A stretch of DNA of 20,000 bases from an uncultured virus (IMG/VR IMGVR_UViG_3300033463_000112). Taxonomy: Duplodnaviria > Heunggongvirae > Uroviricota > Caudoviricetes. Under the pieces are notes generated by a model that did not search any database, had not been told where the DNA came from, and was given only the letters and a program-made list of their open reading frames with translations. The first letter of the stretch is position 1; each line of letters begins with the position of its first letter. Location: the IMG/VR virus record IMGVR_UViG_3300033463_000112; one strand, 5' to 3'. Shown here one piece after another: positions 1 through 12,034 of the stretch. The translations under genes were made by a program, and so were the position numbers.

Positions 1-1248
1 ACCGATGCCGTTCACGTCGTAGGCGAAATCTTCCTCCGCAATGCCGTTCCGTTCCAAAAACGCCTTGATACGGGGCACAACGTCCTCTGCAGTAAGGAAC
101 TTTGCGGCTTCTATATCAATGATATGCCAGCCGTCCATAGCCCAGAGCACGAACCAGTCACCACGTAGGGCAATATCGCCGCCGCCGACTCTCCGGCCGT
201 TGGTCTGAGGAGCGTTGTTGAAAAACCGGTACATATCGTTGGCCGTAATCAGCGAGCCGGTATCGTCAACGTCGCGCCAGACACCGCGTATATCGTTTAC
301 GGTGCTTTTTGAGCCGCCGGAGGAAATACGGTTCATGTACTTAGGGTCGGATACGTGGAGTATCTTGTTTTCCCCAAAGTCGCCGTCAATGAACGTCAGG
401 GACGTAATAAATTCCTTATATTCCTCGTCCGGGTTGTCTGTCAAAGAGCGAATCTTGTTGCGGGCGTTCGGGTTCTCATAGACCTCCTCCGGGGAATCGC
501 CCCACGCAATCTCCGTTACGTCCTCGCCGTAGCGGCAGAAGTAACGAATCTTGCCAGAGCGTGCCGGTATAGCCTCGTCTGTTTCAGGGTCTATCCACCA
601 GTCAAGGAGCGTCCTTAGCTTGTTGGATTTACCTACCGGGTTACAGGTGCAAATGAAACGCGGGGGTACGCCGGAGGTCGAACGGTTAGAGCCCATAAGG
701 TCAAAAATCACGTTCAGGTTATCGCGCGTGAACTCTGCAAGCTCCTCAATCACGATATAGGGCATTTCAGCACCACGGAAACGGTCTTTTACGGCCTTCA
801 GGTCTGCGAGGTGCTCCATTTTCATAGTGGCCCCGGTCCCGTTGAAAAACTTTGCTTCAAAGCTGGTGTCAGCGAAGGTCGCAAAGCCCCTGAATATCGG
901 CTTACAGGACTTCCAGATACCACGCTTTACGTCGTTTTCTAAGCGCCTAAAACCGTACATATTAACGTCCGGGTTGTCGGCATAGTACAATGCTCCAATC
1001 AAGCTAATTGCGGTCTTTCCTGCGCCCCTTGCGCCGCCACAAATGGTAATATCCGCTTTGCTGGTAAGCACTTTCTCCTGAAAGCCCTCCTGCGGGATTA
1101 AATCCCAGATGCGTTTGCCGAGGCGCTTTTGTTCCAGATTCTCCTTCCGTATTTCCTGAGCAAAGTCGTAGGAGTAAACTTCCATGCCGTATTGTGCAAA
1201 TACGGGGTCCAGATATTCGCGCTCGTTTATGACGGTTTCAACGTTCAT
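1..1248 (-). CDS. terL: Terminase large subunit (3' end runs off window start; 416 codons visible)
   Basis: Manual minus-strand translation from ATG at 1248: MNVETVINEREYLDP..., Q motif LIPQEGFQ, Walker A GGARGAGKT, Walker B YIVIEE, coupling motif CTCNP, RNase H-like nuclease motifs GGDIA and YDVNGIG. No stop before position 1. Alternative start at 1185 (Met22). Confidence 0.95.
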   Translation of the reverse strand, partial: MNVETVINEREYLDPVFAQYGMEVYSYDFAQEIRKENLEQKRLGKRIWDLIPQEGFQEKVLTSKADITICGGARGAGKTAISLIGALYYADNPDVNMYGFRRLENDVKRGIWKSCKPIFRGFATFADTSFEAKFFNGTGATMKMEHLADLKAVKDRFRGAEMPYIVIEELAEFTRDNLNVIFDLMGSNRSTSGVPPRFICTCNPVGKSNKLRTLLDWWIDPETDEAIPARSGKIRYFCRYGEDVTEIAWGDSPEEVYENPNARNKIRSLTDNPDEEYKEFITSLTFIDGDFGENKILHVSDPKYMNRISSGGSKSTVNDIRGVWRDVDDTGSLITANDMYRFFNNAPQTNGRRVGGGDIALRGDWFVLWAMDGWHIIDIEAAKFLTAEDVVPRIKAFLERNGIAEEDFAYDVNGIG

Positions 1249-1253
1249 CGAGC

Positions 1254-1327
1254 GCAAAGTTATGCACGAATTTTCAATACAAATCAATATTTATTGAAAT
1301 GTATTGATTTTTTAACTATAACTTTGC
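1254..1327. promoter_or_regulatory. Dyad-symmetric bidirectional promoter: two Bacteroidota -7 elements plus two inverted 16-bp upstream boxes
   Basis: TAACTTTG on + at 1319-1326 and on - at 1262-1255, within the perfect inverted repeat GCAAAGTTAT 1254-1263 / ATAACTTTGC 1318-1327. Inner arms TCAATACAAATCAATA 1274-1289 and TATTGAAATGTATTGA 1292-1307 are 14/16 complementary. All share the axis at 1290.5. Confidence 0.85.
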
Positions 1328-1335
1328 CCGTGTAT

Positions 1336-1497
1336 ATGGACGAAAAAGCGCATATTAGCGGTGTGCAAGTGACTTGCCCCTATTGCAAGAAGTCGTTTCC
1401 TGTAAGGGTGCAATCCTTAGAGGGGCGGCTTCGGCTTTCGGTCCTGTGCAGGCACTGCAAGCGCACCGGCGAAATAACGCTTTCGGACATTAAATAG
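1336..1497 (+). CDS. Small zinc-ribbon protein (53 aa), Com-like/Ogr-like putative regulator
   Basis: MDEKAHISGVQVTCPYCKKSFPVRVQSLEGRLRLSVLCRHCKRTGEITLSDIK: basic, with CPYC...CRHC. ATG lies 9 nt after the -7 element. The longer 1129 start in the ORF track overlaps terL and the promoter and is unlikely. Confidence 0.75.
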   Translation: MDEKAHISGVQVTCPYCKKSFPVRVQSLEGRLRLSVLCRHCKRTGEITLSDIK

Positions 1498-1555
1498 CCA
1501 GCGCCCGCGAGCGCGTATAAGAGGCCACTTTGAGTTACATAGATAACCGCTTAGG

Positions 1556-1599
1556 CCCGGAGTAGAAATCCTGAAAAGGGTTTCCGCTTCGGGTTTTTT
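1556..1599 (+). terminator. Intrinsic terminator/attenuator between the zinc-ribbon gene and scaffold gene
   Basis: Stem CCCGGAGTAGAAATCCT (1556-1572) / AGGGTTTCCGCTTCGGG (1577-1593): 17 positions with one mismatch and three G-U pairs, GAAA tetraloop, then T6 at 1594-1599. Confidence 0.8.
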
Positions 1600-1625
1600 G
1601 TATAACCCAACCGCTCATTGAACAA

Positions 1626-2285
1626 ATGAAAACCAAAATTATTAACGCGCTCAGAACTAAGTATCAGCGCTTCGGGCTGAGCAACGAGGCTATTGACCGG
1701 ATTGCCTCTGCGAAAGAAAAGACCGTCACCCAAGAGAGCGAGATTGAAAGTGCGATTGCTGACGCACAGACAATGGAGCTTATCGCAAACGAGTTGCAGA
1801 AGTCGGCTGATGCCGAACGGCGTTCCCGTTCGGACCTCCAGAAGTCTTTTGACGACTACAAAAAGGAGCACCCTGAAACTCAGGTCACGCCTCCTACGCC
1901 TCCCACTCCGCCCGAAGAGCCGGAATACGTCAAGACCCTTAAAGCCCAGATGCAGCAGTTGCTGGACCGCCAGAAAGCTGACGACGATGCTAAGACCCAC
2001 AAGGAGCTTGTTTCCCGTCTGGAGTCGAAGCTCAAAGAGGCCGGGTGCAACAACCCGGGAATCCTCGCCGCCACACTGAAAGGCTTTACACTGGCCGATA
2101 AGGAAACCGAAGAGGCCGCCGTTGAACGCCTGAAAGGCGAATACAACGCGACTGTAAAGGCAACATTTGGCGACGGCCCCCAACCGCAATTCGGCGGGCA
2201 GACGTTTGGTGATGCGAAAACCGCGCTTGAAAAGAAAAACGCTTTTCTGCGCGAACAGGGACTCCTCCCCCAAGAGGAAAAGTAA
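1626..2285 (+). CDS. Capsid scaffolding protein (putative)
   Basis: 219 aa, charged and helical/coiled-coil-like with a Pro-rich linker (TPPTPPTPPEEP). First structural gene before the decoration and capsid genes. Confidence 0.75.
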   Translation: MKTKIINALRTKYQRFGLSNEAIDRIASAKEKTVTQESEIESAIADAQTMELIANELQKSADAERRSRSDLQKSFDDYKKEHPETQVTPPTPPTPPEEPEYVKTLKAQMQQLLDRQKADDDAKTHKELVSRLESKLKEAGCNNPGILAATLKGFTLADKETEEAAVERLKGEYNATVKATFGDGPQPQFGGQTFGDAKTALEKKNAFLREQGLLPQEEK

Positions 2286-2303
2286 CACCAATTTTTTACA
2301 ACT

Positions 2304-3008
2304 ATGCCTAAGTTTAGCTCTTTCAATGCTTTTGGCTCCGAGGCCAACGAAATCGGCCAGAGTCATGTGCCTGTTTGGCTCGGCGTTGTGACCCCCGTTC
2401 CCGTGGGCGGTGTTCTGGCTAAGGCTTACGCTCTGAAGGGCCTCCTGCTCAGCGCAGGCGCTCCCGTCAAGCTGGCCGAAAAGGTCATTACCCCGTTTAT
2501 CGGCTTCGAGGTGGTTGCTTACACTGGCGCTGGTGCTTCCGACACCTACGATACCGTCGTGGTTAAGCCCGTGAAGCTCGGTGACATTGAAATCGCCCCT
2601 GCTGCTGACGACGTTCTGATGAAGGTAGGCGCTACTTTCGCAACCGCCGGCGCAGCCCGTGCCATTCACTCCTCTACCCTTATCACCAGTGGCGACAACG
2701 AAGGTTGCTACACTCTTGAAATCGCCAAGAGCGCCAACCTCGGTAGCCTGACTGCCGGTGACGTTCTCACTCCCTCCGCTGAAGCCGGTGCTTCTGGTAA
2801 GGTTCCTTCCGTTATCCCTAACGGATACCTCTACAACGACATTTACTTTGGCGGTCTTTCCGGTGACAAGGACAACTACACCATTGCCGCCTCCGGCGCT
2901 GTCGTGAAGTTCCATTCCGAGGGCCTGCTCGTAGAACTGACTCCTTCTGCCGCCGTTAAGGCGCAGATGGCTGCTGCTGTTCCCGGCGTGCTTCAGGTGC
3001 TTGTTTAA
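2304..3008 (+). CDS. Head decoration/cement protein (putative)
   Basis: 234 aa, Ala/Gly/Val-rich, motifs LLSAGAPV and PNGYLYNDI. Sits between scaffold and major capsid (lambda gpD-like position) and has strongly biased codon usage. Confidence 0.65.
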   Translation: MPKFSSFNAFGSEANEIGQSHVPVWLGVVTPVPVGGVLAKAYALKGLLLSAGAPVKLAEKVITPFIGFEVVAYTGAGASDTYDTVVVKPVKLGDIEIAPAADDVLMKVGATFATAGAARAIHSSTLITSGDNEGCYTLEIAKSANLGSLTAGDVLTPSAEAGASGKVPSVIPNGYLYNDIYFGGLSGDKDNYTIAASGAVVKFHSEGLLVELTPSAAVKAQMAAAVPGVLQVLV

Positions 3009-3029
3009 TCCTGTAATTCCAAGTACACT

Positions 3030-4205
3030 ATGGACGCTTATCAGATTCAATTCTACGACCTGCTTTCCCGCGCCCTCGGCGCTGGCGAGTCTATCCAGAG
3101 CTTTCTGGATAACACTATGGCCCTGAAGTACAACAAACTTCAGCTTGACGGCTTTACCTTTGAGCCTTTCATGCAGGCCGACTTCACCTACGAACAGATT
3201 GTAGGCGACCTCCCCCTGAACGTCATGGCTCAGTATTACGACGTTGATTCCCCGGCTCTGCCCGACGGAACGACCGGCTTTAAGGCTTACACTGGCAAGA
3301 TTCCTCGCATGAAGAAAGTCGAATACTTCAACGAGGACAAACTCCGCAAGATGAAGCTCGTAGAGGACCGCAAGTCCACTACCGCCGCCCAGATTGCCGA
3401 GATTGCCTATCAGCAGCTGTTTATCACTGTTGACAAGCTCATTGGCGGTCACACCAACGCTCTGACCTATCAGCGTCATCAGGCTGTTTCCACCGGTAAG
3501 TTCGTTATCAACAACACGAACAACCCGAAGGGTATTAAGAACATTACCCTCGACTACCACATTCCTTCTGCCAACAAGACCGTTCTTCCTCAGACGAGTG
3601 TTCGCTGGTGGACCTCCACCACCCACGTTCAGGCCAACGAAGGCGCAAACTCCAATCCCGTAAAGGACCTTGTGGACATTGTTAACAAGGCTCGCTACGC
3701 TGGTGTGCGCGGCCATTTCGAGGTCGAAATCGACTATCTGAAGGAAGTCCTTGCTCACAGCAAGGTACTGGCCCAGATTGGCGTTGCCACCCTGCCCGCT
3801 TCCGACTCCACCGCTCAGGCCGCTTACGCAAGTATCCTGAGCTACGAGGCCAAGAAGTCCGCTCTGGAGAGCCTGATTGGCGCTCCCATTAAGGCCATTG
3901 ACAGCATCGTTCCTGTCGAGTCTATCGACAAGTCCGAAAAGGCTTTCACCCGTTCCAACATTAACGCCTTCGAAAAGAACGTGTTTGTGTTCGTTCCTGA
4001 CGGTGAAATCGGCGTTGTCAAGACCGTGGAGCCTATCGCTCTGGAAGGCGGTAACTACGCTTCCTTCTACGGCGGCAAGCTCCTGCTGACCGTTGGCGTT
4101 GACTTCGTTAAGAAGTGCCAGAGCTACAATACGGAAATGACCTCCGTTGTCATTCCTACTGTACCTCAGTATATGTGGTATCTCTATCCGAACAACGTTG
4201 AGTAG
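3030..4205 (+). CDS. Major capsid protein (HK97 fold, lambda gpE-like family)
   Basis: 391 aa, motifs GKIPRMK, HQAVSTGK, LDYHIP, SNPVKDL and FVFVPDGEIG resemble gpE-type capsids. Position and strong codon bias agree. Confidence 0.88.
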   Translation: MDAYQIQFYDLLSRALGAGESIQSFLDNTMALKYNKLQLDGFTFEPFMQADFTYEQIVGDLPLNVMAQYYDVDSPALPDGTTGFKAYTGKIPRMKKVEYFNEDKLRKMKLVEDRKSTTAAQIAEIAYQQLFITVDKLIGGHTNALTYQRHQAVSTGKFVINNTNNPKGIKNITLDYHIPSANKTVLPQTSVRWWTSTTHVQANEGANSNPVKDLVDIVNKARYAGVRGHFEVEIDYLKEVLAHSKVLAQIGVATLPASDSTAQAAYASILSYEAKKSALESLIGAPIKAIDSIVPVESIDKSEKAFTRSNINAFEKNVFVFVPDGEIGVVKTVEPIALEGGNYASFYGGKLLLTVGVDFVKKCQSYNTEMTSVVIPTVPQYMWYLYPNNVE

Positions 4206-4228
4206 TTTAACCGTAATTGAAGGAAGAT

Positions 4229-4603
4229 ATGGCCGACATAAGCACAAATCTGACTTTCGTAAGGTGGCTCAGGGCTAAGGCCGAGCCGTTCATGGACCTG
4301 TCCGATGATTTCCTTTTCTCTATCCTCATTGGGCGGGGAATCAATGACGACGAGTACCTGTACTCTGCCGCCACTGAGAAACAGAAAGACCTGTGCTATG
4401 CAGACGTGCTGTTTGCAGCGGCCGTATCTTCCGTCAAAACGGGAACGCAAGGCGAATCCGACGGCGGCTGGACCCACTATATCGCAATTAAGAACGCCGT
4501 AAACCGTAACGGCTTGCTCGATATGGCAAAGGCGCTCTACGACAAGTGGAATGAGCCGTTTTCCGACCCGCGCAACAAAATCAGACTGAAGCCCCTGTAC
4601 TAA
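4229..4603 (+). CDS. Head-tail adaptor/connector protein (putative)
   Basis: 124 aa from ATG 4229 (track uses TTG 4217). Motifs DLCYADVL, ESDGGWTH and AKALYDKWNE. Directly follows the capsid gene; stop overlaps the next start (TAATG). Confidence 0.7.
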   Translation: MADISTNLTFVRWLRAKAEPFMDLSDDFLFSILIGRGINDDEYLYSAATEKQKDLCYADVLFAAAVSSVKTGTQGESDGGWTHYIAIKNAVNRNGLLDMAKALYDKWNEPFSDPRNKIRLKPLY

Positions 4604-6744: not shown

Positions 6745-7317
6745 ATGCAACAGCCTACACTCGAACAGAGGAAAGAGTATCTCGATATAGTGAATGACGC
6801 TGTATCAATAGTACCGATTGAGGGCACGAAAAAGAGAGTAAAACTCCATTGGATTAAGCCCTATACAATGGAGCGCATCACTAAGGTTTGGATTGAACGC
6901 GAACTTGCAAGCGCCAAGCTGGAAAGCGGCGCTGACGTTCTCAAAGACCTTGCTAAAGAGCCGTATTTCGCGTTTAAAGAGGCGGCGTTAATGATTCTTA
7001 ACCACGACATTAAGATACGCCTTTTTTACGGCATTTACTGGCGTTATCTGGCCTACAAATATAGCGAGGCTCAGATTTCCGGTATTATCGCGGAGGGTAA
7101 AAAAAAACTTCCGCTTACGGCACACTACGCGACTATGGCGTTCTCGCTGGATATGAGGACGGATTGGGTGAAGATGACAAAGACCGAAGCAGAGCAATAC
7201 CGAGCAGAACTTCTTTTGGAAGCGAAGCGGCTTTCTGCAAGGACTTCCCCGGCTACGGGCGGCCCCGTTGGCGGCTCTTCCGTTGGGAGCGCAATTTCGG
7301 CTACCGGTGTATCCTAA
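6745..7317 (+). CDS. Tail assembly chaperone (lambda gpG-like)
   Basis: 190 aa between the tail tube and tape measure genes; contains GGT AAA AAA AAA CTT (GKKKL) at 7096-7110. Confidence 0.75.
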   Translation: MQQPTLEQRKEYLDIVNDAVSIVPIEGTKKRVKLHWIKPYTMERITKVWIERELASAKLESGADVLKDLAKEPYFAFKEAALMILNHDIKIRLFYGIYWRYLAYKYSEAQISGIIAEGKKKLPLTAHYATMAFSLDMRTDWVKMTKTEAEQYRAELLLEAKRLSARTSPATGGPVGGSSVGSAISATGVS

Positions 7318-7538
7318 CCTGTGCACAAATCGAACTGATGCAAGCGGACCTGCCCCACACGCTAATCAAGCACAACGACAGGAAGGGCAAGGGCGGCGGC
7401 TCGAGTACGTTCGTTCCGAAAGCGAACGACCGGGCGTTTGAGCTTCAACAAGCGGCTAACCGCAAGGCGGCCCAGCGCCGTGCAGCAATGAACGGGGGCG
7501 AAGCTCCTTTGAGTATGAATGACATTTTTAGCAAATAG
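7101..7538 (+). CDS. -1 frame extension of tail assembly chaperone (gpGT-like)
   Basis: The -1 frame opens right after TAA 7098-7100 within the A9 tract and stays open to TAG 7536-7538, 5 nt before the tape measure ATG. The track start is only a TTG at 7164. Confidence 0.65.
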   Translation, partial: KKTSAYGTLRDYGVLAGYEDGLGEDDKDRSRAIPSRTSFGSEAAFCKDFPGYGRPRWRLFRWERNFGYRCILTCAQIELMQADLPHTLIKHNDRKGKGGGSSTFVPKANDRAFELQQAANRKAAQRRAAMNGGEAPLSMNDIFSK

Positions 7539-7543
7539 ATACA

Positions 7544-10500
7544 ATGGCAAAGGGAACTGGAACAATCGACTCTCTGAATTTTGAGGTTTTGCTTCTGGAC
7601 GACAAGTTTAAAAAGTCCGTGGAGGCCGACCTGAAAATAGCTCAGGACCTTAATACGAAGCTGACTAATGTTCTGAACCTGAAAAAGCGCCTGAACAGCG
7701 AAACGACCCAGCAGATTGTCAATGCCGAGAAGGTCCGTCAGGCAGAACAGAAAACGGCTCAGGAAATAGCCAAAACTGCCCTACAACAGCAAAAAGTAGC
7801 CACGGAGGTAGAACGCACCAGAAAGATTCAAGAAGGGCATACAGGGGCCGTAAAAAGCACCAATGCGGCACTCGGTAACACACAGGCAATCTTGCGCACG
7901 CTGAGCCAGCTTACCGGCGTAACATTCTCCGTTACCGGCCTTCGCCGTTTCCTTGCCCAGCTTATTGAAATAACGGGCCAGTTTGAGGTTCAGCGCATGG
8001 CGCTCCGGAATATGCTTCAGGACGTGGACGGCGCGGACAAAATCTTTGAGGACCTGTACCGCTTTAGCTCTGATTCGACTTATCGTTTCTCTGAGCTCGC
8101 CAAGTACGCAAAACAGCTTGCCGCTTTCAATATCGGCAAAGACTCCTTGCTGGAAACTACCAAGATGCTCGGCGACGTTGCCTCCGGCGTAGGTGTTTCT
8201 ATGGACCGCGTTATTCTGGCCTACGGTCACGTGAAATCCTCTGGATTCCTTCGTGGTATTCAGCTTCGTTCCTTCTCCCAGAACGGTATCCCGGTGCTGG
8301 AGGAACTGGCAAAGCAATTCTCCGAAATCGAAAAGCGCACCGTTTCTTTGGGTGAGATTTTCGACAAGATGATGAAGCGCGAAATCCCCTTTGAAATGGT
8401 GGAGGAAGCGTTTAAACGCATGACCTCCGAGGGTGGTAAGTTCTACCAGATGCAGGAGGTTCTGGCTAAGACGCTGGCGGGTCAGATTAACATTCTGAAA
8501 GGCCGTTGGGAAAATATGCTCGCGGCTATCGGTCAGGCTAATTCCGGTATCCTGAAAGGCACGGTAAGCTCCATAAGCAGCTTGCTTGTGCACTACGACG
8601 AACTCGGAAAGAAAATCGTCGAAATCGTTTCTCTGTACGGCGCGTATAGGGCGGCTATCTATGCTGCCGAACTGGCCGCTAAGGGCTATACCGCCGCAGA
8701 AATAGCCGAAGTTACCGTCATGGAGGTTAAAAACAAGCTGATGCTTAAAAACCCCTATGCGCTCCTTGCGGCCGCTATCATCACCGTTACCGCCGCCGTC
8801 TGGAAGATGATTGACGGCATGAAGGAGGCAACGGCTATGCAGGAAACAATGGCTAAGGAACAAAGTAAGTACACTACTGACCTTACCAAGAGCGTTTCCG
8901 AGCTTGACCTGCTGTACGGCAAACTGAAACTGGCCGCTAAGGGCACGAGCGAGTACGATACGGCCGTTCGTTCGATTCAGTCCAGATACGGCGAGTACAT
9001 TACCCAGCTTCAGAACGAAGGTGTTGCCGTATCCGACCTTGCGGCAATCTACGACCAACTTCGCCAGAAGGTTGAGGACGCGGCTAAAGCAAGATTCATA
9101 GCGTCGGCCCGTCATTCTCTGGAGCAGACTTACAGCGAGCAGATAGGTGAAATCTTCGATAAAAACGGAAGATTCTCTATGGTGCGCGTTGTAAATCAGC
9201 TTGATTTGGACGCTAAGGAGGCCGGGTTCCTGAAAATGATGATTGCCGGTGTTACCTCTGAGGAAAACCTCCGTAAGCTCGAAGAGGCCACGTCGCTATT
9301 TGAGAAAATCGACAAGGGCTTTATCAGCTATGGCGCTGGTGATACCGGCCCCGTAAAGGCAGCAAAATACATTGAAAATCTCAGGCTCCGTGTGGCTGAA
9401 CTTAACCGGGAGTTCAATGATAGCAACGATATTATTGAAACCTTTGTTAACGCGCTCACTAAGACCGACGACAACGGCGGCGGGAACCCAGATACGAACG
9501 GTGTAACCATTCGTCTTTCGAGCATAATTGCCGGTATCAGAAAAACGGAAAAGGATATTGCCCGTCTGGAGAAAAAGGCGGCCACCGTGGGGCTCTATAT
9601 CGGCAAAGATAAGAACGGCAACGAGATTAACGAAAAGCAGGAGCTTGCGAACCTTCGTGCCGCCCGGGAAGAGGACATTAAAGCCTATGAGGAAATCATG
9701 GGTAAGGGCTCTTTCAAAAAGTACGAAAAGAGCCGTGCCGACGCTGACAAGGAGGCCATTCAGGCGCTCAAAACTCAGTGTACCCTTCTCGAAAAGTATA
9801 AGGACGCTTACGACAAGCTGGAGCCGATTATGGGCCGGGACGCTACTATTGGCTTCCTGTCTAAAATGTTCAAGCAGGACGAGTCCACTTTCGCAAATCT
9901 TGACAAAGATATAGCGGACGTGGTGGAGAGCCTCCGGGCGCTTGGCGAACAGGGTAACGAGGCCGCAGACGCTATCGAGGCTCGGCTCGGGACCGACGCT
10001 GTTTCCAAACTTGTTGCGCTTGACAAGGCGGCAAAGAAGGCCGAACAGGACTTTGCAAACGCAGAGGCGAAACTCAATGAATACCTGACTAAAGATTTCG
10101 GCATTGAGGGCGAGCGTGTTGCGGCAAAAATCAGTAAGGCTCTTGCGGACCTTAAGACAAAGAACGCTGGTGTAGATGCGCACTATGGGGAGCTTGTTAA
10201 GACCCTTGAAAAAGAGCGCCAAAAAGTTGTTGACGACTATATCAAGAGCGGCCACTCGGCAGAAGAAGCAGATGCTTATTGGGACGAATATAAAACCAGA
10301 ATGACCGATGCGCTCAAAGCTCAGGCGGCAAAGGAAAAGGCCCAAAACGCCGCCGTGATGAAAGAGCGCGTCCGTGGAATGGCAAAAGCCCTATTTGACG
10401 AGCAAATGGAGGGTTTTGACCTCTCTAACTGGACCGACAAGACGCTTTCGCAGATTCAAGACATTAAGGACGCAATGGAACACGTTACGCTCCCTGATGA

Positions 10501-12034
10501 TTTGAGAAAAGCGCTCGGCGACAATCTGGAGCTTGCCGGTATGCTTTATATGGAGCTCAAAAAGATTGCCGGAGAGAACCTTACCAACACGGTTGTTCCA
10601 GAAATGAAAAAGTCGTGGGCGAGCACGGCTCAGAATGTGGCAAAGTACATTGGAAAGGCCGCAGAATCTATGCGGCAACTTGCCGAAGCAACGGGCGATT
10701 CCGCGCTCAGCGATGCGTCAAAGGCCGCTTCTGCGATTTCTGAAAACCTTTCTGCGGCCGCAGCTGGTTTTCAGGTTGGCGGCGCGTGGGGTGCTGTGAT
10801 TGCCGGTGTTTTAGACGCTATTGTGCAGATAGTAAATGGCATATCTCAGGCAGAGGCAGAGGCTATGCAGATGCGTAACACGATACGCGAAATACGCTAT
10901 GAAATGGCCGAAGCACGCTGGAGTGATAGCCTTTCTGCCGGTGATAACGGCATTTTCGGTGAGAACTTTATCGAAAACGTAAGGGCCGCCACAAAGGCAA
11001 TAGACGAGTCGAAAAATGACCTAAAGTCGGCAAACGCCTATATGGAAGTTTACCACCGTTACGTGCGCTTTAATGCCCCGTTTAATATTTGGGGACTTCT
11101 TGACAAAGAAAAGGGTCATGCGGTAATTAAGACCGACCATAGTTTCTGGAACGGCGATACGTGGACCAAGCTCGAAGATATTGCCAAAAACCTGAACATG
11201 GAACTTTACCAAGAGGGCGGGTATTTGAACCCTACGTTTTTGGAAAAGGTTATCGAGCTTTATGGCGACGCAAACGAACAGGCGCTTGACTGGCTTCTGA
11301 AAGAAAAGGAGGCCGCGAAAGAATATAATGCCGCAATAGAAACAATCCATAACTCCACGAAGGAACTTTTTGATTCGCTTTCGTCTGATATGACGGACCA
11401 GTTCATTGAGAACTTTAAGGAAATGGGGAACGCCGTTGACGACCTCGGAGATGTGTTTGAAAACCTCGGCGAAACAATCCTTCGTTCGTTGCTCCAGTCC
11501 TACATTCTTGATAAAGTGCTCAATCAGTACGAGGACGAGGCTAACTCTATGCTTGCCGCCTATGCGGCTGGCGAAATGTCGGAAGATGATTATGCTAAGT
11601 GGCTGAAGCAGTTTACAGAAAACGTGCAAAGGGATAGCGAAAACCAGTCTGCCGCTATCAACGGTCTGATTAACGCCTTTGCAAGTCGCGGGCTGATTAT
11701 TAACGACGAAGAGGACGAAAACGAGTCGAATGACAAAAATTCGCTCGGCGCTGGCATCAAGTCGATTACCGAGGAAACGGCCTCCTTGCTGGCCTCCTAT
11801 ATCAACGCCATGCGTGCGGACATTAGCTTTATGCGGACGCTTCAGGAGGCCGGGTGGGCCAATATCGAACAGCTTACCGGCGTTCTGATTCCTTCGCTTG
11901 CCGACTACGCAGAGCAGATAGCCGCGAACACCTACAACGCCTCTCAGGACACGGCCGCTATCCTGACTGAGCTCCGGAGCGTAATCGGACCTGCGGGCCA
12001 GTCCGGCGACGTTCTCAGGGTCGAAACGGTGTAA
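7544..12034 (+). CDS. Tail tape measure protein
   Basis: 1496 aa, helical and Ala/Lys/Glu-rich. N-terminal tape-measure domain (FEVQRMALRNML...LGDVASG...LAYGHVKSSGFLRGIQLRSFSQNGIP), hydrophobic segments NPYALLAAAIITVTAAVW and GGAWGAVIAGVLDAIV, C-terminal GIKSITEETASLLASYINAMR. Confidence 0.95.
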   Translation: MAKGTGTIDSLNFEVLLLDDKFKKSVEADLKIAQDLNTKLTNVLNLKKRLNSETTQQIVNAEKVRQAEQKTAQEIAKTALQQQKVATEVERTRKIQEGHTGAVKSTNAALGNTQAILRTLSQLTGVTFSVTGLRRFLAQLIEITGQFEVQRMALRNMLQDVDGADKIFEDLYRFSSDSTYRFSELAKYAKQLAAFNIGKDSLLETTKMLGDVASGVGVSMDRVILAYGHVKSSGFLRGIQLRSFSQNGIPVLEELAKQFSEIEKRTVSLGEIFDKMMKREIPFEMVEEAFKRMTSEGGKFYQMQEVLAKTLAGQINILKGRWENMLAAIGQANSGILKGTVSSISSLLVHYDELGKKIVEIVSLYGAYRAAIYAAELAAKGYTAAEIAEVTVMEVKNKLMLKNPYALLAAAIITVTAAVWKMIDGMKEATAMQETMAKEQSKYTTDLTKSVSELDLLYGKLKLAAKGTSEYDTAVRSIQSRYGEYITQLQNEGVAVSDLAAIYDQLRQKVEDAAKARFIASARHSLEQTYSEQIGEIFDKNGRFSMVRVVNQLDLDAKEAGFLKMMIAGVTSEENLRKLEEATSLFEKIDKGFISYGAGDTGPVKAAKYIENLRLRVAELNREFNDSNDIIETFVNALTKTDDNGGGNPDTNGVTIRLSSIIAGIRKTEKDIARLEKKAATVGLYIGKDKNGNEINEKQELANLRAAREEDIKAYEEIMGKGSFKKYEKSRADADKEAIQALKTQCTLLEKYKDAYDKLEPIMGRDATIGFLSKMFKQDESTFANLDKDIADVVESLRALGEQGNEAADAIEARLGTDAVSKLVALDKAAKKAEQDFANAEAKLNEYLTKDFGIEGERVAAKISKALADLKTKNAGVDAHYGELVKTLEKERQKVVDDYIKSGHSAEEADAYWDEYKTRMTDALKAQAAKEKAQNAAVMKERVRGMAKALFDEQMEGFDLSNWTDKTLSQIQDIKDAMEHVTLPDDLRKALGDNLELAGMLYMELKKIAGENLTNTVVPEMKKSWASTAQNVAKYIGKAAESMRQLAEATGDSALSDASKAASAISENLSAAAAGFQVGGAWGAVIAGVLDAIVQIVNGISQAEAEAMQMRNTIREIRYEMAEARWSDSLSAGDNGIFGENFIENVRAATKAIDESKNDLKSANAYMEVYHRYVRFNAPFNIWGLLDKEKGHAVIKTDHSFWNGDTWTKLEDIAKNLNMELYQEGGYLNPTFLEKVIELYGDANEQALDWLLKEKEAAKEYNAAIETIHNSTKELFDSLSSDMTDQFIENFKEMGNAVDDLGDVFENLGETILRSLLQSYILDKVLNQYEDEANSMLAAYAAGEMSEDDYAKWLKQFTENVQRDSENQSAAINGLINAFASRGLIINDEEDENESNDKNSLGAGIKSITEETASLLASYINAMRADISFMRTLQEAGWANIEQLTGVLIPSLADYAEQIAANTYNASQDTAAILTELRSVIGPAGQSGDVLRVETV

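Follow-up and report, generated by a model that had tools for sequence, protein, structure and literature searches.

Results

Organization of the locus

The window, the 20,000-nt stretch of IMG/VR record IMGVR_UViG_3300033463_000112 analysed here, belongs to a tailed phage or prophage whose hosts are rumen Bacteroidales, a group dominant in gut and rumen. A 53-aa C4 zinc-ribbon ORF (ATG at 1336, TAG at 1495-1497), correctly identified in an earlier note on this DNA, is followed by hairpins that we designate P1, P2 and P3 and then by a scaffold-like gene. Capsid, tail tape measure and giant fibre genes lie downstream of the latter on the same plus strand, and the head and tail genes behind the element span about 18 kb. 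The features are as follows.

1254-1327, no strand assigned: mirror-image divergent promoter region between TerL and the zinc-ribbon gene, an inverted repeat with 36-nt arms that includes both TAACTTTG motifs
1319-1326, plus: TAnnTTTG motif, 9 nt upstream of the zinc-ribbon ATG
1336-1497, plus: 53-aa C4 zinc-ribbon protein, Com-like/Cys_rich_KTR-like, a proposed RNA-binding regulator (ORF, profile comparisons, AF2)
1501-1514, plus: P1 hairpin, GCGC / loop CCGCGA / GCGC, a Com-type site (CC-CGC-GAG); 4 of 4 pairs have two-sided changes
1523-1526, plus: GGCC in the invariant AGAGGCY linker, 5′ strand of a predicted alternative (anti-terminator) helix (alignment, folding)
1534-1547, plus: P2 hairpin, GUUA / loop CAUAGA / UAAC, the second C..GA hairpin (42-element alignment)
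1554-1595, plus: P3, a long, terminator-like hairpin capped by GAAA, with one A×C mismatch (folding, alignment)
1554-1557, plus: GGCC that could pair with 1523-1526 or, at the base of P3, with 1592-1595 (alignment, folding)
1594-1607, plus: U-rich tail UUUUUUGUAUAACC; (A/U)UUU(G)YAUAACC is conserved beyond the needs of a U tract
1608-1625, plus: conserved leader ending at the scaffold-like start codon, consensus GUUCAUUGAAA (alignment of relatives)
1626-2285, plus: first gene behind the element, a scaffold-like protein (phrog_5824; weak phrog_172)

TerL is encoded on the minus strand (ATG at 1247) and is separated from the zinc-ribbon gene by the inverted repeat, whose arms (1254-1289 and 1292-1327) are 72% complementary and carry TAACTTTG at 1255-1262 (minus) and 1319-1326 (plus). 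This divergent promoter region is conserved in relatives. TAnnTTTG, which we take to be the Bacteroidetes −7-type promoter motif, stands only 9 nt from the zinc-ribbon ATG, which implies a leaderless or near-leaderless mRNA. The motif occurs 4-21 nt before the zinc-ribbon start in all 40 related loci with upstream sequence (32 counted by script and 8 by eye; 2 of 42 loci are truncated). Its 10 matches across the window equal the 10.0 expected, so the motif by itself is not significant.

A blastn comparison of positions 1-4300 with 50,697 phage records returned no match to a named phage, cmscan of the whole window on both strands gave no Rfam covariance-model match at E ≤ 1, and ARAGORN found no tRNA in the window. 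Carriers of the element form a group of cattle-rumen phages. Each of the four records searched has one element per genome, and a 60-kb record that is classed as complete and has terminal repeats carries it mid-genome.

The zinc-ribbon protein and its relatives

The knuckles of the protein are CPYC (residues 14-17) and CRHC (38-41), and C14, C17, C38 and C41 are invariant in 27/27 aligned members; the C4 zinc-ribbon trait of the Com family, two CxxC knuckles in a small protein, is thus present. An AF2 model has four strands at modest confidence (pLDDT 70.4). Foldseek, which the earlier note had recommended for establishing its kinship, returned nothing at E ≤ 0.001 for this model in BFVD or PDB, generic small zinc ribbons being the only matches, and a PDB sequence-profile search gave C2H2/Elf1-type knuckle matches only.

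The designation of the protein as Com-like was in line with the C4 ribbon and, weakly, with profile comparison and a weak neighbour, phrog_5602, common to Com and the zinc-ribbon family, and failed at the Pfam Com model. PF10122 (Zn_ribbon_Com) was not matched by P0001 at E ≤ 1, was not among the 25 families listed for 27 members, and at E ≤ 1e-4 was matched by 0/53 remote relatives; the score of Mu Com itself is 36.8 bits, the cut-off being 22.9. The best Pfam scores of the family are to generic zinc-ribbon models and fall below their cut-offs. With hhalign, the family aligned to Mu Com alone at a probability of 83.9%, and the 27 members aligned to 15 Com-family proteins over 32 columns covering both knuckles at 90.7% (E 1.2e-6), although about 91% in a pairwise hhalign of 50-aa CxxC ribbons, compared here without an unrelated zinc-ribbon control, is a weak value. 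The second knuckle is alike in the two (RCPRCKR in Mu, family consensus RCPHCKR). We consider the similarity to be weak and probably Com-directed. Names attached to neighbouring proteins include phrog_6417, ‘translational regulator’, matched by 4/4 further members tested (E 0.003-0.04), and ‘DNA-binding transcriptional regulator’, an NCBI label on several Com-family proteins.

Two other families had been put forward. Ogr/Delta found no backing: the Ogr_Delta model is not listed for P0001 at E ≤ 1, nor is it among the 25 families listed for 27 members. The Cys_rich_KTR family (PF14205) found backing in remote relatives and none in the family's own members, since PF14205 is not listed among the matches of the window protein or its 26 aligned relatives. 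It was matched at E ≤ 1e-4 by 9 of 53 short remote relatives, two above the cut-off of 25.5 bits (P0072, 26.0; P0074, 27.1) and seven just below it, and hhalign of the family with ten relatives of this kind gave a probability of 99.7%. Protein P0074 of this neighbourhood, searched alone, yielded partial 18-residue matches only. Cys_rich_KTR, a family of uncharacterised small proteins, is the nearest named sequence neighbourhood; a name-based literature search found no function for it in print, the family terms occurring only 1-2 times per listed text.

Two small hairpins with Com-type loops

Directly past the zinc-ribbon stop codon, the earlier note had quoted the strings CAGCGCC (1499-1505), cgc, GAGCGCG (1509-1515), tataa and GAGGCC (1521-1526) as repeats resembling Com sites. 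All are present as quoted. They are, however, not three direct repeats but the two strands of P1 and one strand of a longer-range helix, and the set was incomplete, since P2 (1534-1547), a second real site, had been missed. P1 and P2 each consist of a 4-bp stem and a loop of the form C-N2-6-GA. In the window the P1/P2 structure begins 4 nt past the stop codon; in most relatives P1 starts inside the stop codon or within about 6 nt of it, and in many it overlaps the stop, the G of UAG being the first base of the P1 stem.

According to PMC6483171, the Mu Com recognition motif is CC(N)2-3GAG in a short hairpin loop, and the Mu site AUGC/CUGCGA/GCAU can be set beside GCGC/CCGCGA/GCGC of P1. P1 of the window is a short C-G-closed hairpin with a CC(N)2-3GAG loop, and at the level of sequence the hairpins match the published motif. 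Only this loop form is present: the GAG(N)2CC Com SELEX word, on which the repeats had been likened to Com sites, is not matched by GAGCGCG or GAGGCCA. The proposal of Com-type sites at this position nevertheless stood, as the P1 loop matches and two 4-bp hairpins with C..GA loops occur in 37/42 related elements. Strict Com motifs number 1.81 per element, against 0.24 in shuffles; at least one lies upstream of P3 in 27/42 elements and one within the 5′ strand of P3 in 34/42. Paired 4-bp hairpins with C..GA loops, 10-40 nt apart, occur once on the plus strand of the window, against a mean of 0.09 and a maximum of 1 in 100 shuffles.

In the two subfamilies whose proteins diverge most, the P1 and P2 loops vary in concert: L055 and L064 have C..GC in both loops, and L070 has AAUUA in both.

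A terminator-like hairpin and a competing helix

The GAAA-capped hairpin with T6 reported earlier, 26 nt before the scaffold ATG, is present at 1554-1599, and its counterpart follows the sites in 42/42 relatives. The P3 stem extends from C1556-G1593 to U1572-A1577, with the loop at 1573-1576 and the mismatch at A1564×C1585; outer G.U pairs (1554/1595 and 1555/1594) are possible, giving 16-18 pairs in total. P3 appears in RNAfold MFE and centroid structures alike, and its 5′ strand contains a third CC(N)2GAG string, CCCGGAG, at 1556-1562. The T6 run occupies 1594-1599 and the scaffold-like ATG is at 1626. P3 has the form of an intrinsic terminator, a stable G+C-rich hairpin followed by a U-rich tract: across the 42 elements it folds at −20 to −31 kcal/mol, and 4-7 of the 8 nt that come next are U. 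About one relative in three has a poor U tail (AUUUCAUA and AUCUUAUA; score 1.25-1.6). A simple terminator scan of the window did not list P3, a miss that we tentatively attribute to the internal mismatch. The lower stem is conserved in sequence as well as in pairing.

The base of P3 has a second potential partner. GGCY at 1523-1526 can pair with RGCC at 1554-1557 in a 4-bp helix that competes with the P3 foot; this helix is paired in 99.4% of cells and the competing foot in 97%. L040 has the sole changes at both helix columns, and they are complementary (GGUC:GACC), while L054 has lost one base from each strand. In nascent-RNA folding the helix has a median probability of 0.93 and reaches at least 0.5 in 31/42 elements; once the 3′ strand is present, P3 wins in folding. 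The helix takes up 4 of about 18 P3 pairs, GGCC is self-complementary, and strict two-sided covariation of the helix comes from one sequence. P2 is present in both conformations, and why loop binding would favour the open state is not obvious.

Pairing of the tail UAUAACC with the 5′ strand of P2 was rejected because the tail stays constant while P2 covaries, and a mini-ORF in P3 or the tail was rejected by eye, as neither reading frames nor spacers are conserved. The idea that TTKYATAACC recurs as a late-promoter word was likewise rejected: the window has 2 matches against 3.8 expected and no second intergenic copy, the other match lying inside a gene start. No TAnnTTTG had been seen after the hairpin, and this held, with no occurrence on the plus strand in 1327-3154 and none inside the 42 related elements. 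The conservation of tail YAUAACC and GUUCAUUGAAA is not explained by the regulatory model developed below, and the two could be an unrecognised promoter.

Four metatranscriptome runs gave few short contigs only, gaps in their coverage being uninformative. One RNA-library contig of 213 nt, identical to window positions 1416-1628, runs unbroken from the zinc-ribbon ORF across P3; it reaches about 30 nt past the hairpin, DNA carry-over is possible, and contig ends are not RNA ends. With the same proviso about its end, an RNA-library contig from a relative starts 3 nt before the scaffold ATG.

Conservation, covariation and strand

Forty-two related elements were aligned to a covariance model. Because the element was found in 42/42 related loci searched with the model, and because the hairpin pair is rare in shuffles, it is more than chance. 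Standard pairs make up 95.1% of 1091 cells, and two-sided changes occur in 18/26 pairs. Covariation across homologues, which the earlier note had asked for, is strong in P1, P2 and P3 (in P2, 100% of cells are paired and 3/4 pairs have two-sided changes). None of 500 shuffles reached the observed pairing or covariation score, and pairing falls to 23-49% when partner columns are slid. G.U pairs are conserved (column pair 68/100 is G.U in 36/42 elements and 71/97 is U.G in 30/42), indicating that the structure exists in the sense (plus-strand) RNA only. RNAfold of the whole 136-nt stretch gave z = −2.52, with 3/200 shuffles folding equally well.

A DNA-pattern scan with the 3′ part of the element only found 25 loci, and in 11/11 new ones, divergent forms included, a zinc-ribbon ORF lies directly upstream; the expectation that the sites would be conserved beside homologous genes was thus confirmed. 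The covariance model found the element in 0/6 distant tblastn loci (L025, L028, L046, L047, L048 and L050). As family members, L046-L050 (34-39% identity), L025, L028, L049 and L051 were rejected, being longer, unrelated proteins. Taken together, these data establish the anatomy of the element, its conservation, covariation and strand, its linkage to the zinc-ribbon gene and the likeness of its loops to the Com site.

Discussion

A putative gate on the virion operon

To our knowledge, detailed accounts of late-gene timing exist for a handful of model phages (lambda Q and N, Mu C, P2 Ogr, T4 gp55) and for essentially none of the Bacteroidales phages. For this locus we favour, at a probability of roughly 0.45, a reading in which a Com-like, putative RNA-binding protein opens the terminator-like P3 ahead of the virion operon. 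We infer that the zinc-ribbon protein binds RNA and that P3 terminates transcription, and likewise the sense in which the protein acts. One −7-type promoter (1319-1326) would start a near-leaderless mRNA whose first product is the 53-aa protein. Without the protein, P3 would form fully and most polymerases would be stopped or at least attenuated. Accumulated protein would bind the C..GA hairpins of nascent RNA, as Mu Com binds its hairpin, and may also bind CCCGGAG in the 5′ strand of P3. Binding would keep the P3 foot open, with RGCC paired to GGCY between P1 and P2; the hairpin would then no longer reach the U tract, and polymerase would read through into the virion operon. The earlier note had proposed a positive-feedback gate. 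This part has to be replaced: the zinc-ribbon gene lies upstream of the hairpin, so read-through would not feed back on its own transcription, and the layout would instead act as a feed-forward delay timer on particle production. It is not obviously sensible to gate the most abundantly needed proteins and to leave TerL, behind the mirror promoter, without a gate.

Related regulatory systems

Mu Com/mom (PF10122) is the closest parallel. In both, a small C4 zinc ribbon is encoded just upstream of the regulated, here putatively regulated, gene on the same transcript; in both, on the Mu side according to PMC6483171, a 4-bp hairpin has a loop that begins with C and ends in GA (CUGCGA in Mu, CCGCGA in P1) and adjoins a larger hairpin, inhibitory in Mu, with CC..GAG in its 5′ strand (Mu CCCACGGAG; here CCCGGAG). 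The window protein differs in falling below the Pfam Com model, and the hosts differ, Proteobacteria for Mu and Bacteroidales here. Mu has one hairpin and the window element two; the inhibitory hairpin of Mu holds the mom start codon, whereas P3 holds none and is followed by a U tract, so that the likely target here is termination rather than translation. The regulated unit is a DNA-modification gene, mom, in Mu and would be the whole head-tail operon in this phage.

ANTAR antitermination (EutV, AmiR, NasR), as described in PMC3369931, PMC8934654 and 10.1101/2020.09.27.315978, resembles the locus in its RNA. In each, a pair of small hairpins in tandem, their loop positions conserved, stands ahead of a terminator; the hairpins are bound by protein in ANTAR systems and, we propose, here, and are exclusive with the terminator. 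The candidate protein of this locus is instead a 53-aa zinc ribbon with no ANTAR domain, and no ANTAR model is among the Pfam matches of the 14 window ORFs scanned. Overlap with the terminator is made by a separate 4-bp helix enclosing P2, not by the second hairpin's own strand, and the operon serves late phage expression, not metabolism. By word search, ‘zinc’ and ‘phage’ are both absent from a 2025 review of RNA-binding antiterminators (PMC12591593).

The order of elements also recalls the logic of lambda Q: promoter, short transcript, terminator-like hairpin, late genes. In lambda late control (Q, pR′, 6S RNA, tR′) a promoter and short transcript are followed by a strong terminator and late genes spanning some 20 kb. 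Q, a protein three to four times the size of the zinc ribbon, is loaded at a DNA site. Small hairpins in nascent RNA as the site for a small basic protein would be closer to lambda N and nut boxB; N is an arginine-rich peptide dependent on Nus factors. Unlike in lambda, the short transcript here itself encodes the candidate factor.

Alternative explanations

The same protein-RNA pair might act after transcription, binding to P1 and P2 tuning the translation or stability of the scaffold message or, by autoregulation, of the zinc-ribbon message, with P3 as a constitutive attenuator or a 3′/5′ stabiliser. Com is a translational activator and not an antiterminator (PMC6483171); P1 abuts or overlaps the zinc-ribbon stop codon, where a terminating ribosome and the protein would compete; the leader GUUCAUUGAAA ahead of the scaffold ATG is conserved; and the weak matches to phrog_6417 point the same way. 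We nevertheless consider this unlikely, as P3 stops about 26-35 nt short of the scaffold ATG and leaves the start codon outside, unlike the translation-inhibiting structure of Mu, and neither RNAalifold nor inspection found conserved pairing that hides the scaffold start. In 42/42 elements a hairpin of −20 to −31 kcal/mol runs directly into a U-rich tail, a feature required of a terminator and not of a translational operator. Quite unlikely, too, is that the RNA acts without the protein, as a fixed attenuator setting how many transcripts are short and how many long, a put-like RNA acting in cis to render polymerase resistant to termination (put of HK022 being two stem-loops) or a 3′-UTR small RNA with its end at P3, with the zinc ribbon working elsewhere, for example by Ogr/Delta-type binding at the palindromic promoter DNA. 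The sequence conservation of the lower P3 stem would fit contact between the RNA and a conserved host machine, the 36-nt-arm inverted repeat needs some dimeric binder, and the NCBI label of several Com-family proteins names DNA binding. Yet the joint changes of the P1 and P2 loops in two divergent protein subfamilies point to a co-evolving, phage-encoded ligand and not a host machine, the loop sequences fit the RNA site of Com, and Ogr_Delta is absent from the Pfam lists of P0001 (E ≤ 1) and the 25 families listed for 27 members.

It is improbable that P3 is a plain terminator of a short zinc-ribbon transcript and that the operon has its own promoter in TTTGTATAACC...GTTCATTGAAA, dependent on a phage factor or non-canonical host sigma. 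That stretch is conserved beyond the needs of a U tract or leader, an ‘..ATTG’ 3-10 nt before the scaffold ATG stands about where the TTTG of the −7 motif stands before the TerL and zinc-ribbon starts, and the contig of the relative beginning 3 nt before the scaffold ATG would suit such a start, contig ends not being RNA ends. However, TAnnTTTG is found in 0/42 elements; TTTG is spaced 9-17 nt from GTTCATTG, where 19-21 nt is expected from the consensus; the window contains TTKYATAACC at no other intergenic position; and the identical 213-nt contig crosses P3 to 1628, a weak point given possible DNA carry-over and only about 30 nt past the hairpin. Most improbable is a DNA site next to the terminase gene, for pac/cos packaging or replication, with the hairpins as DNA cruciforms. 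Its place, flanked by TerL and the head genes, its highly conserved sequence and its inverted repeats would suit this reading; conserved G.U pairs would become A/C mismatches in the complementary DNA strand, covariation preserves pairing and not sequence, and the mid-genome position in the complete 60-kb record also argues against it.

Implications

Beyond the proposed opening of P3 by its upstream protein, and more tentatively, the locus may represent a new class of antiterminator, in which a Com-like ribbon of about 50 aa would read its own twin hairpins and open a terminator foot, and Cys_rich_KTR proteins may likewise be Com-type riboregulators with co-evolving hairpin codes. In this compact locus a protein of 53 aa is paired with an RNA of roughly 100 nt, and obvious sites for mutation are the two loop GA dinucleotides and the two complementary GGCC tetrads. 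The element is absent from Rfam and, with 42 sequences and strong covariation, can be submitted as a new motif. We know of nearly no zinc-finger riboregulator other than Mu Com. If the proposed gate is real, this would be a second Com-type system, acting on a terminator, which would mark Com-type recognition as a module that can be reused; the few known RNA-binding antiterminators would gain a further protein class, and the Cys_rich_KTR family a first lead to its function; and the entire head-tail operon of these Bacteroidales phages would be switched by the zinc-ribbon protein.

A conserved structured RNA between the zinc-ribbon and scaffold-like genes

The interval between the 53-aa zinc-ribbon ORF and the scaffold-like gene carries an RNA element consisting of two small hairpins, P1 (1501-1514) and P2 (1534-1547), and a long terminator-like hairpin, P3 (1554-1595). 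All items that an earlier note had listed here were found in place. The surrounding genes are as follows.

Predicted genes in the window
1-1247, minus: large terminase (TerL), N-terminal 416 residues; phrog_979, E 2.6e-46
1336-1497, plus: 53-aa zinc-ribbon ORF
1626-2285, plus: scaffold-like gene; phrog_5824, weakly phrog_172
between scaffold-like and major capsid genes, plus: gene of unknown product
3030-4205, plus: major capsid protein; phrog_29
after capsid, before tape measure, plus: small head/tail genes
7544-12034, plus: tape measure, 1496 aa
12665-19648, plus: fibre-like protein, 2327 aa, one third of the window; several tail-fibre-type PHROG matches (phrog_38044, E 5.5e-135; phrog_33450)

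Immediately 5′ of the tape-measure gene, the usual location of a tail-assembly chaperone pair produced by programmed frameshifting, are two ORFs (6745-7317 and 7164-7538) that overlap in different frames.

No DNA-level similarity to named phages was found, and near-identical DNA is present in cattle and goat gut metagenome runs. Two relatives lie in MAGs, one Bacteroidales (L026) and one labelled Clostridia (L027, contig JAFUJR010000033.1), and one protein relative carries a Bacteroidaceae MAG name. Because the promoter words in the window are presumably of Bacteroidetes type, the Clostridia label may reflect a binning error of a phage contig.

Protein-pattern searches gave 24 IMG/VR, 2 MAG and 17 metagenome loci, leaving out a 25th, unrelated IMG/VR locus (L025) and six metagenome rows that were unrelated longer proteins; a search limited to lengths of 28-93 aa placed 58 clusters in the zinc-ribbon family at E <= 0.001. 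A DNA pattern made from the 3′ intergenic part alone (P3 3′ strand, tail and leader) detected 25 loci. Eleven were new, all with a zinc-ribbon ORF directly upstream, and they include proteins 35-38% identical to that of the window (loci L055 and L064, CRYC..CTKC; L070, CLCC..CKFC). With a covariance model derived from 33 distinct sequences, each of 42 related sources proved to contain one full-length element. Four longer phage records, one of them a 60-kb record classed complete, contained one apiece, and six unrelated loci none. A covariance-model search of the whole window yielded no Rfam match.

The covariation check proposed in the earlier note gave a strong result. In alignment A7 (42 sequences), which was fitted to the covariance model and thereby favours structure, standard pairs fill 95.1% of 1091 cells and two-sided changes occur in 18 of 26 pairs. 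L042, L043 and L045 are misaligned by two columns in P1 and were counted there as broken. None of 500 shuffles matched the observed pairing or covariation, slid-column controls were only 23-49% paired, and the same pairs were seen in a MAFFT alignment.

P1, a 4-bp hairpin, starts in or no more than ~6 nt from the stop codon in most relatives (in the window, 4 nt past it), with two-sided changes at all four pairs (GCGC, GCGU/ACGC, GCAC/GUGC, GUGU/ACAC, GUAC, CCGC/GCGG). The linker that follows ends in near-invariant AGAGGCY. P2, also of 4 bp, is paired in 100% of cells and varies on both sides at three pairs (GUUA, GUUG, GUCG, GUUC, GUCC, GUCA). After a short linker comes P3, whose lower 10 pairs are near-invariant in sequence while the upper part covaries freely. 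Mid-P3 carries one A x C mismatch (1564/1585; A7 columns 72/96), kept in 24 of 42 sequences, the other 18 having other non-pairs or pairs; A-C pairs adjoining GA are noted for Com targets in PMC6483171. The tail (A/U)UUU(G)YAUAACC, the leader GUUCAUUGAAA and the scaffold ATG complete the order. Tail and leader (1594-1625) are near-invariant in the 42 relatives in alignments A4 and A7, which is more than either a U tract or a leader without structure would require; neither a partner sequence nor a repeated copy was found for them.

We conclude that the element is a real, conserved and hitherto uncatalogued structured RNA, linked to a Com-like zinc-ribbon gene.

P1 and P2 resemble the Mu Com site

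The targets of phage Mu Com described in PMC6483171 invariably have C-G as closing pair, and the protected residues are the first loop C and GA; the natural site lies within GAAUGCCUGCGAGCAUCCCACGGAG, adjoining and partly overlapping a translation-inhibition hairpin. As read from the Mu record, that site has stem AUGC/GCAU and loop CUGCGA. Window P1 (stem GCGC/GCGC, loop CCGCGA) has the same stem length, the same closing pair and 5 of 6 identical loop letters. Exactly two 4-bp hairpins with C...GA loops are present in 37 of 42 elements; in two more, one loop begins with A (L054 P1, L023 P2), and the remaining three belong to the two divergent subfamilies. The window plus strand contains one such pair (0.09 expected), as does the 60-kb relative. 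The strict Com word as published, CC(N)2-3GAG, averages 1.81 per element versus 0.24 in shuffles, and is also found in the invariant P3 5′ strand (CCCGGAG; 34/42), similar to CCCACGGAG in the Mu inhibitory stem. Judged by sequence, P1 and P2 are predicted Com-type sites. The motif given in the earlier note was close to the published form; the three stretches it had marked as repeats turned out to be both strands of P1 plus one strand of another helix, and P2 had been missed.

The protein has four invariant cysteines in the family alignment and an AF2 model of four strands (pLDDT 70). Fold searches with the model were uninformative, the best Pfam match was the generic Zn_ribbon_4, under its cut-off, and Zn_ribbon_Com was absent among the Pfam matches listed for the window protein, family members and remote relatives. 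Profile-profile comparison with 15 Com-family proteins gave 90.7% probability, covering both knuckles; phrog_5602 is a weak neighbour common to both families, and the Com-like phrog_6417 was touched by all four further members tested (E 0.003-0.04). An exhaustive profile search returned 76 representative clusters at E <= 0.001. Nine of the 53 short ones matched Cys_rich_KTR at E <= 1e-4, two above its cut-off, and profile alignment of the family with ten of the short relatives gave 99.7% probability. We provisionally file the protein in the part of the zinc beta-ribbon neighbourhood closest to Cys_rich_KTR; probably Com-like in activity, it is not a demonstrated Com family member.

The foot of P3 can pair in two ways

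The first four bases of P3, RGCC, pair with its 3′ end in 97% of cells and alternatively with linker GGCY, enclosing P2, in 99.4%. L040 has the sole change at each of two columns; these are complementary (GGUC with GACC) and break the P3 pair. L061 and L072 show a U.G intermediate, all three AGCC loci have GGCU, giving a U-A pair, and in L054 both strands are one base shorter. A C-to-U change in L044 is matched by a compensating change in P3, and the alternative helix accommodates it as G.U. When nascent RNA is folded before the P3 3′ strand appears, the alternative helix has a median probability of 0.93 (at least 0.5 in 31/42), and in full-sequence folding P3 wins completely. As modelled, this would be the usual antiterminator/terminator layout, in which the weaker state has to be held by some factor, with real caveats: the competition involves only 4 of ~18 pairs, GGCC can pair with itself, and a single sequence supplies the strict covariation.

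P3 folds at -20 to -31 kcal/mol in 42/42 elements, with 4-7 U among the next eight bases. The window and about half of the relatives have a good U tail (UUUUGUAU), whereas that of about a third is poor (AUUUCAUA, AUCUUAUA); a simple terminator scan of the window did not have P3 among its calls. Four RNA libraries with traces of this phage yielded short contigs only. One contig, identical to the window, spans 1416-1628 and hence the whole element, which is compatible with read-through, not proof of it. An RNA-library contig of a related phage (run X18) starts 3 nt upstream of the scaffold ATG; the end of a contig does not mark an RNA end.

The divergent promoter region

TAnnTTTG lies at 1319-1326, with the zinc-ribbon ATG 9 nt further on, and is absent from the plus strand between 1326 and 3155, where the next copy falls inside the capsid gene. 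Since its count in the whole window equals chance (10 versus 10.0), its value comes from position and conservation only. It was found 4-21 nt upstream of the zinc-ribbon start in 40/40 related loci having upstream sequence (32 scored by script, 8 by eye; the other two of 42 are truncated). Both the TerL and zinc-ribbon genes start 4-9 nt past a -7-type word, so leaderless or near-leaderless mRNAs are expected for both. For L055 and L064, a GTG located 4 nt past the promoter word is the sole possible start.

The region between these genes (1254-1327) is a mirror image with 36-nt arms, 72% complementary, in which identical TAACTTTGC words face outward, each 6-9 nt from its own start codon. The inner arms differ in sequence in L002, with the inverted repeat kept (GGAAT..ATTCC). 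The region resembles an operator at which a dimeric regulator would control both late operons.

Mechanism and alternatives

Our preferred reading, protein-dependent antitermination at P3, is tentative (probability about 0.45). The same protein-RNA pair may instead act on translation or stability; we consider this unlikely. Ranked just below it is an RNA that functions without the protein; the zinc ribbon would then work at some other site, such as the palindromic promoter. Bearing on this are the divergent loci: L055 and L064 have C-NNN-GC in both loops (stems GAAC/GUUC and GUUC/GAAC), L070 has AAUUA in both, and all three proteins are without the family strings FPVRV and SVRCPHCKR. That two sites should change jointly with the neighbouring protein is a prediction of a cognate pair and not of a host factor, although the events number only two. 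A plain terminator followed by an unrecognised promoter within the conserved tail and leader, where TAnnTTTG is missing, appears improbable. Least credible by far is a DNA site: conserved G.U pairs at two positions (36/42 and 30/42) would become A/C mismatches on the complementary strand, so the functional form is the sense RNA, neither DNA nor an antisense transcript.

The earlier note had the protein bind repeats in its own mRNA, permitting read-through as positive feedback. This interpretation is partly supported. A conserved Com-type RNA tied to a Com-like gene survives from it; the repeats were misread, and the layout is not one of positive feedback. Under antitermination at P3, because the zinc-ribbon gene lies upstream of the gate, its product would act there as a delay timer. 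No reading accounts for the invariance of YAUAACC and GUUCAUUGAAA, for the kept A x C mismatch, or for the gating of structural genes and not terminase.

A literature search mostly outside subscription journals found no prior description of the element, which does not prove that there is none. For zinc-ribbon antitermination of phage late genes, lambda Q and Nus papers surfaced; no published function for Cys_rich_KTR was found, and the words 'zinc' and 'phage' do not occur in a 2025 review of RNA-binding antiterminators (PMC12591593). The proposed gate function of the element is a clearly framed hypothesis, fit for testing at the bench.
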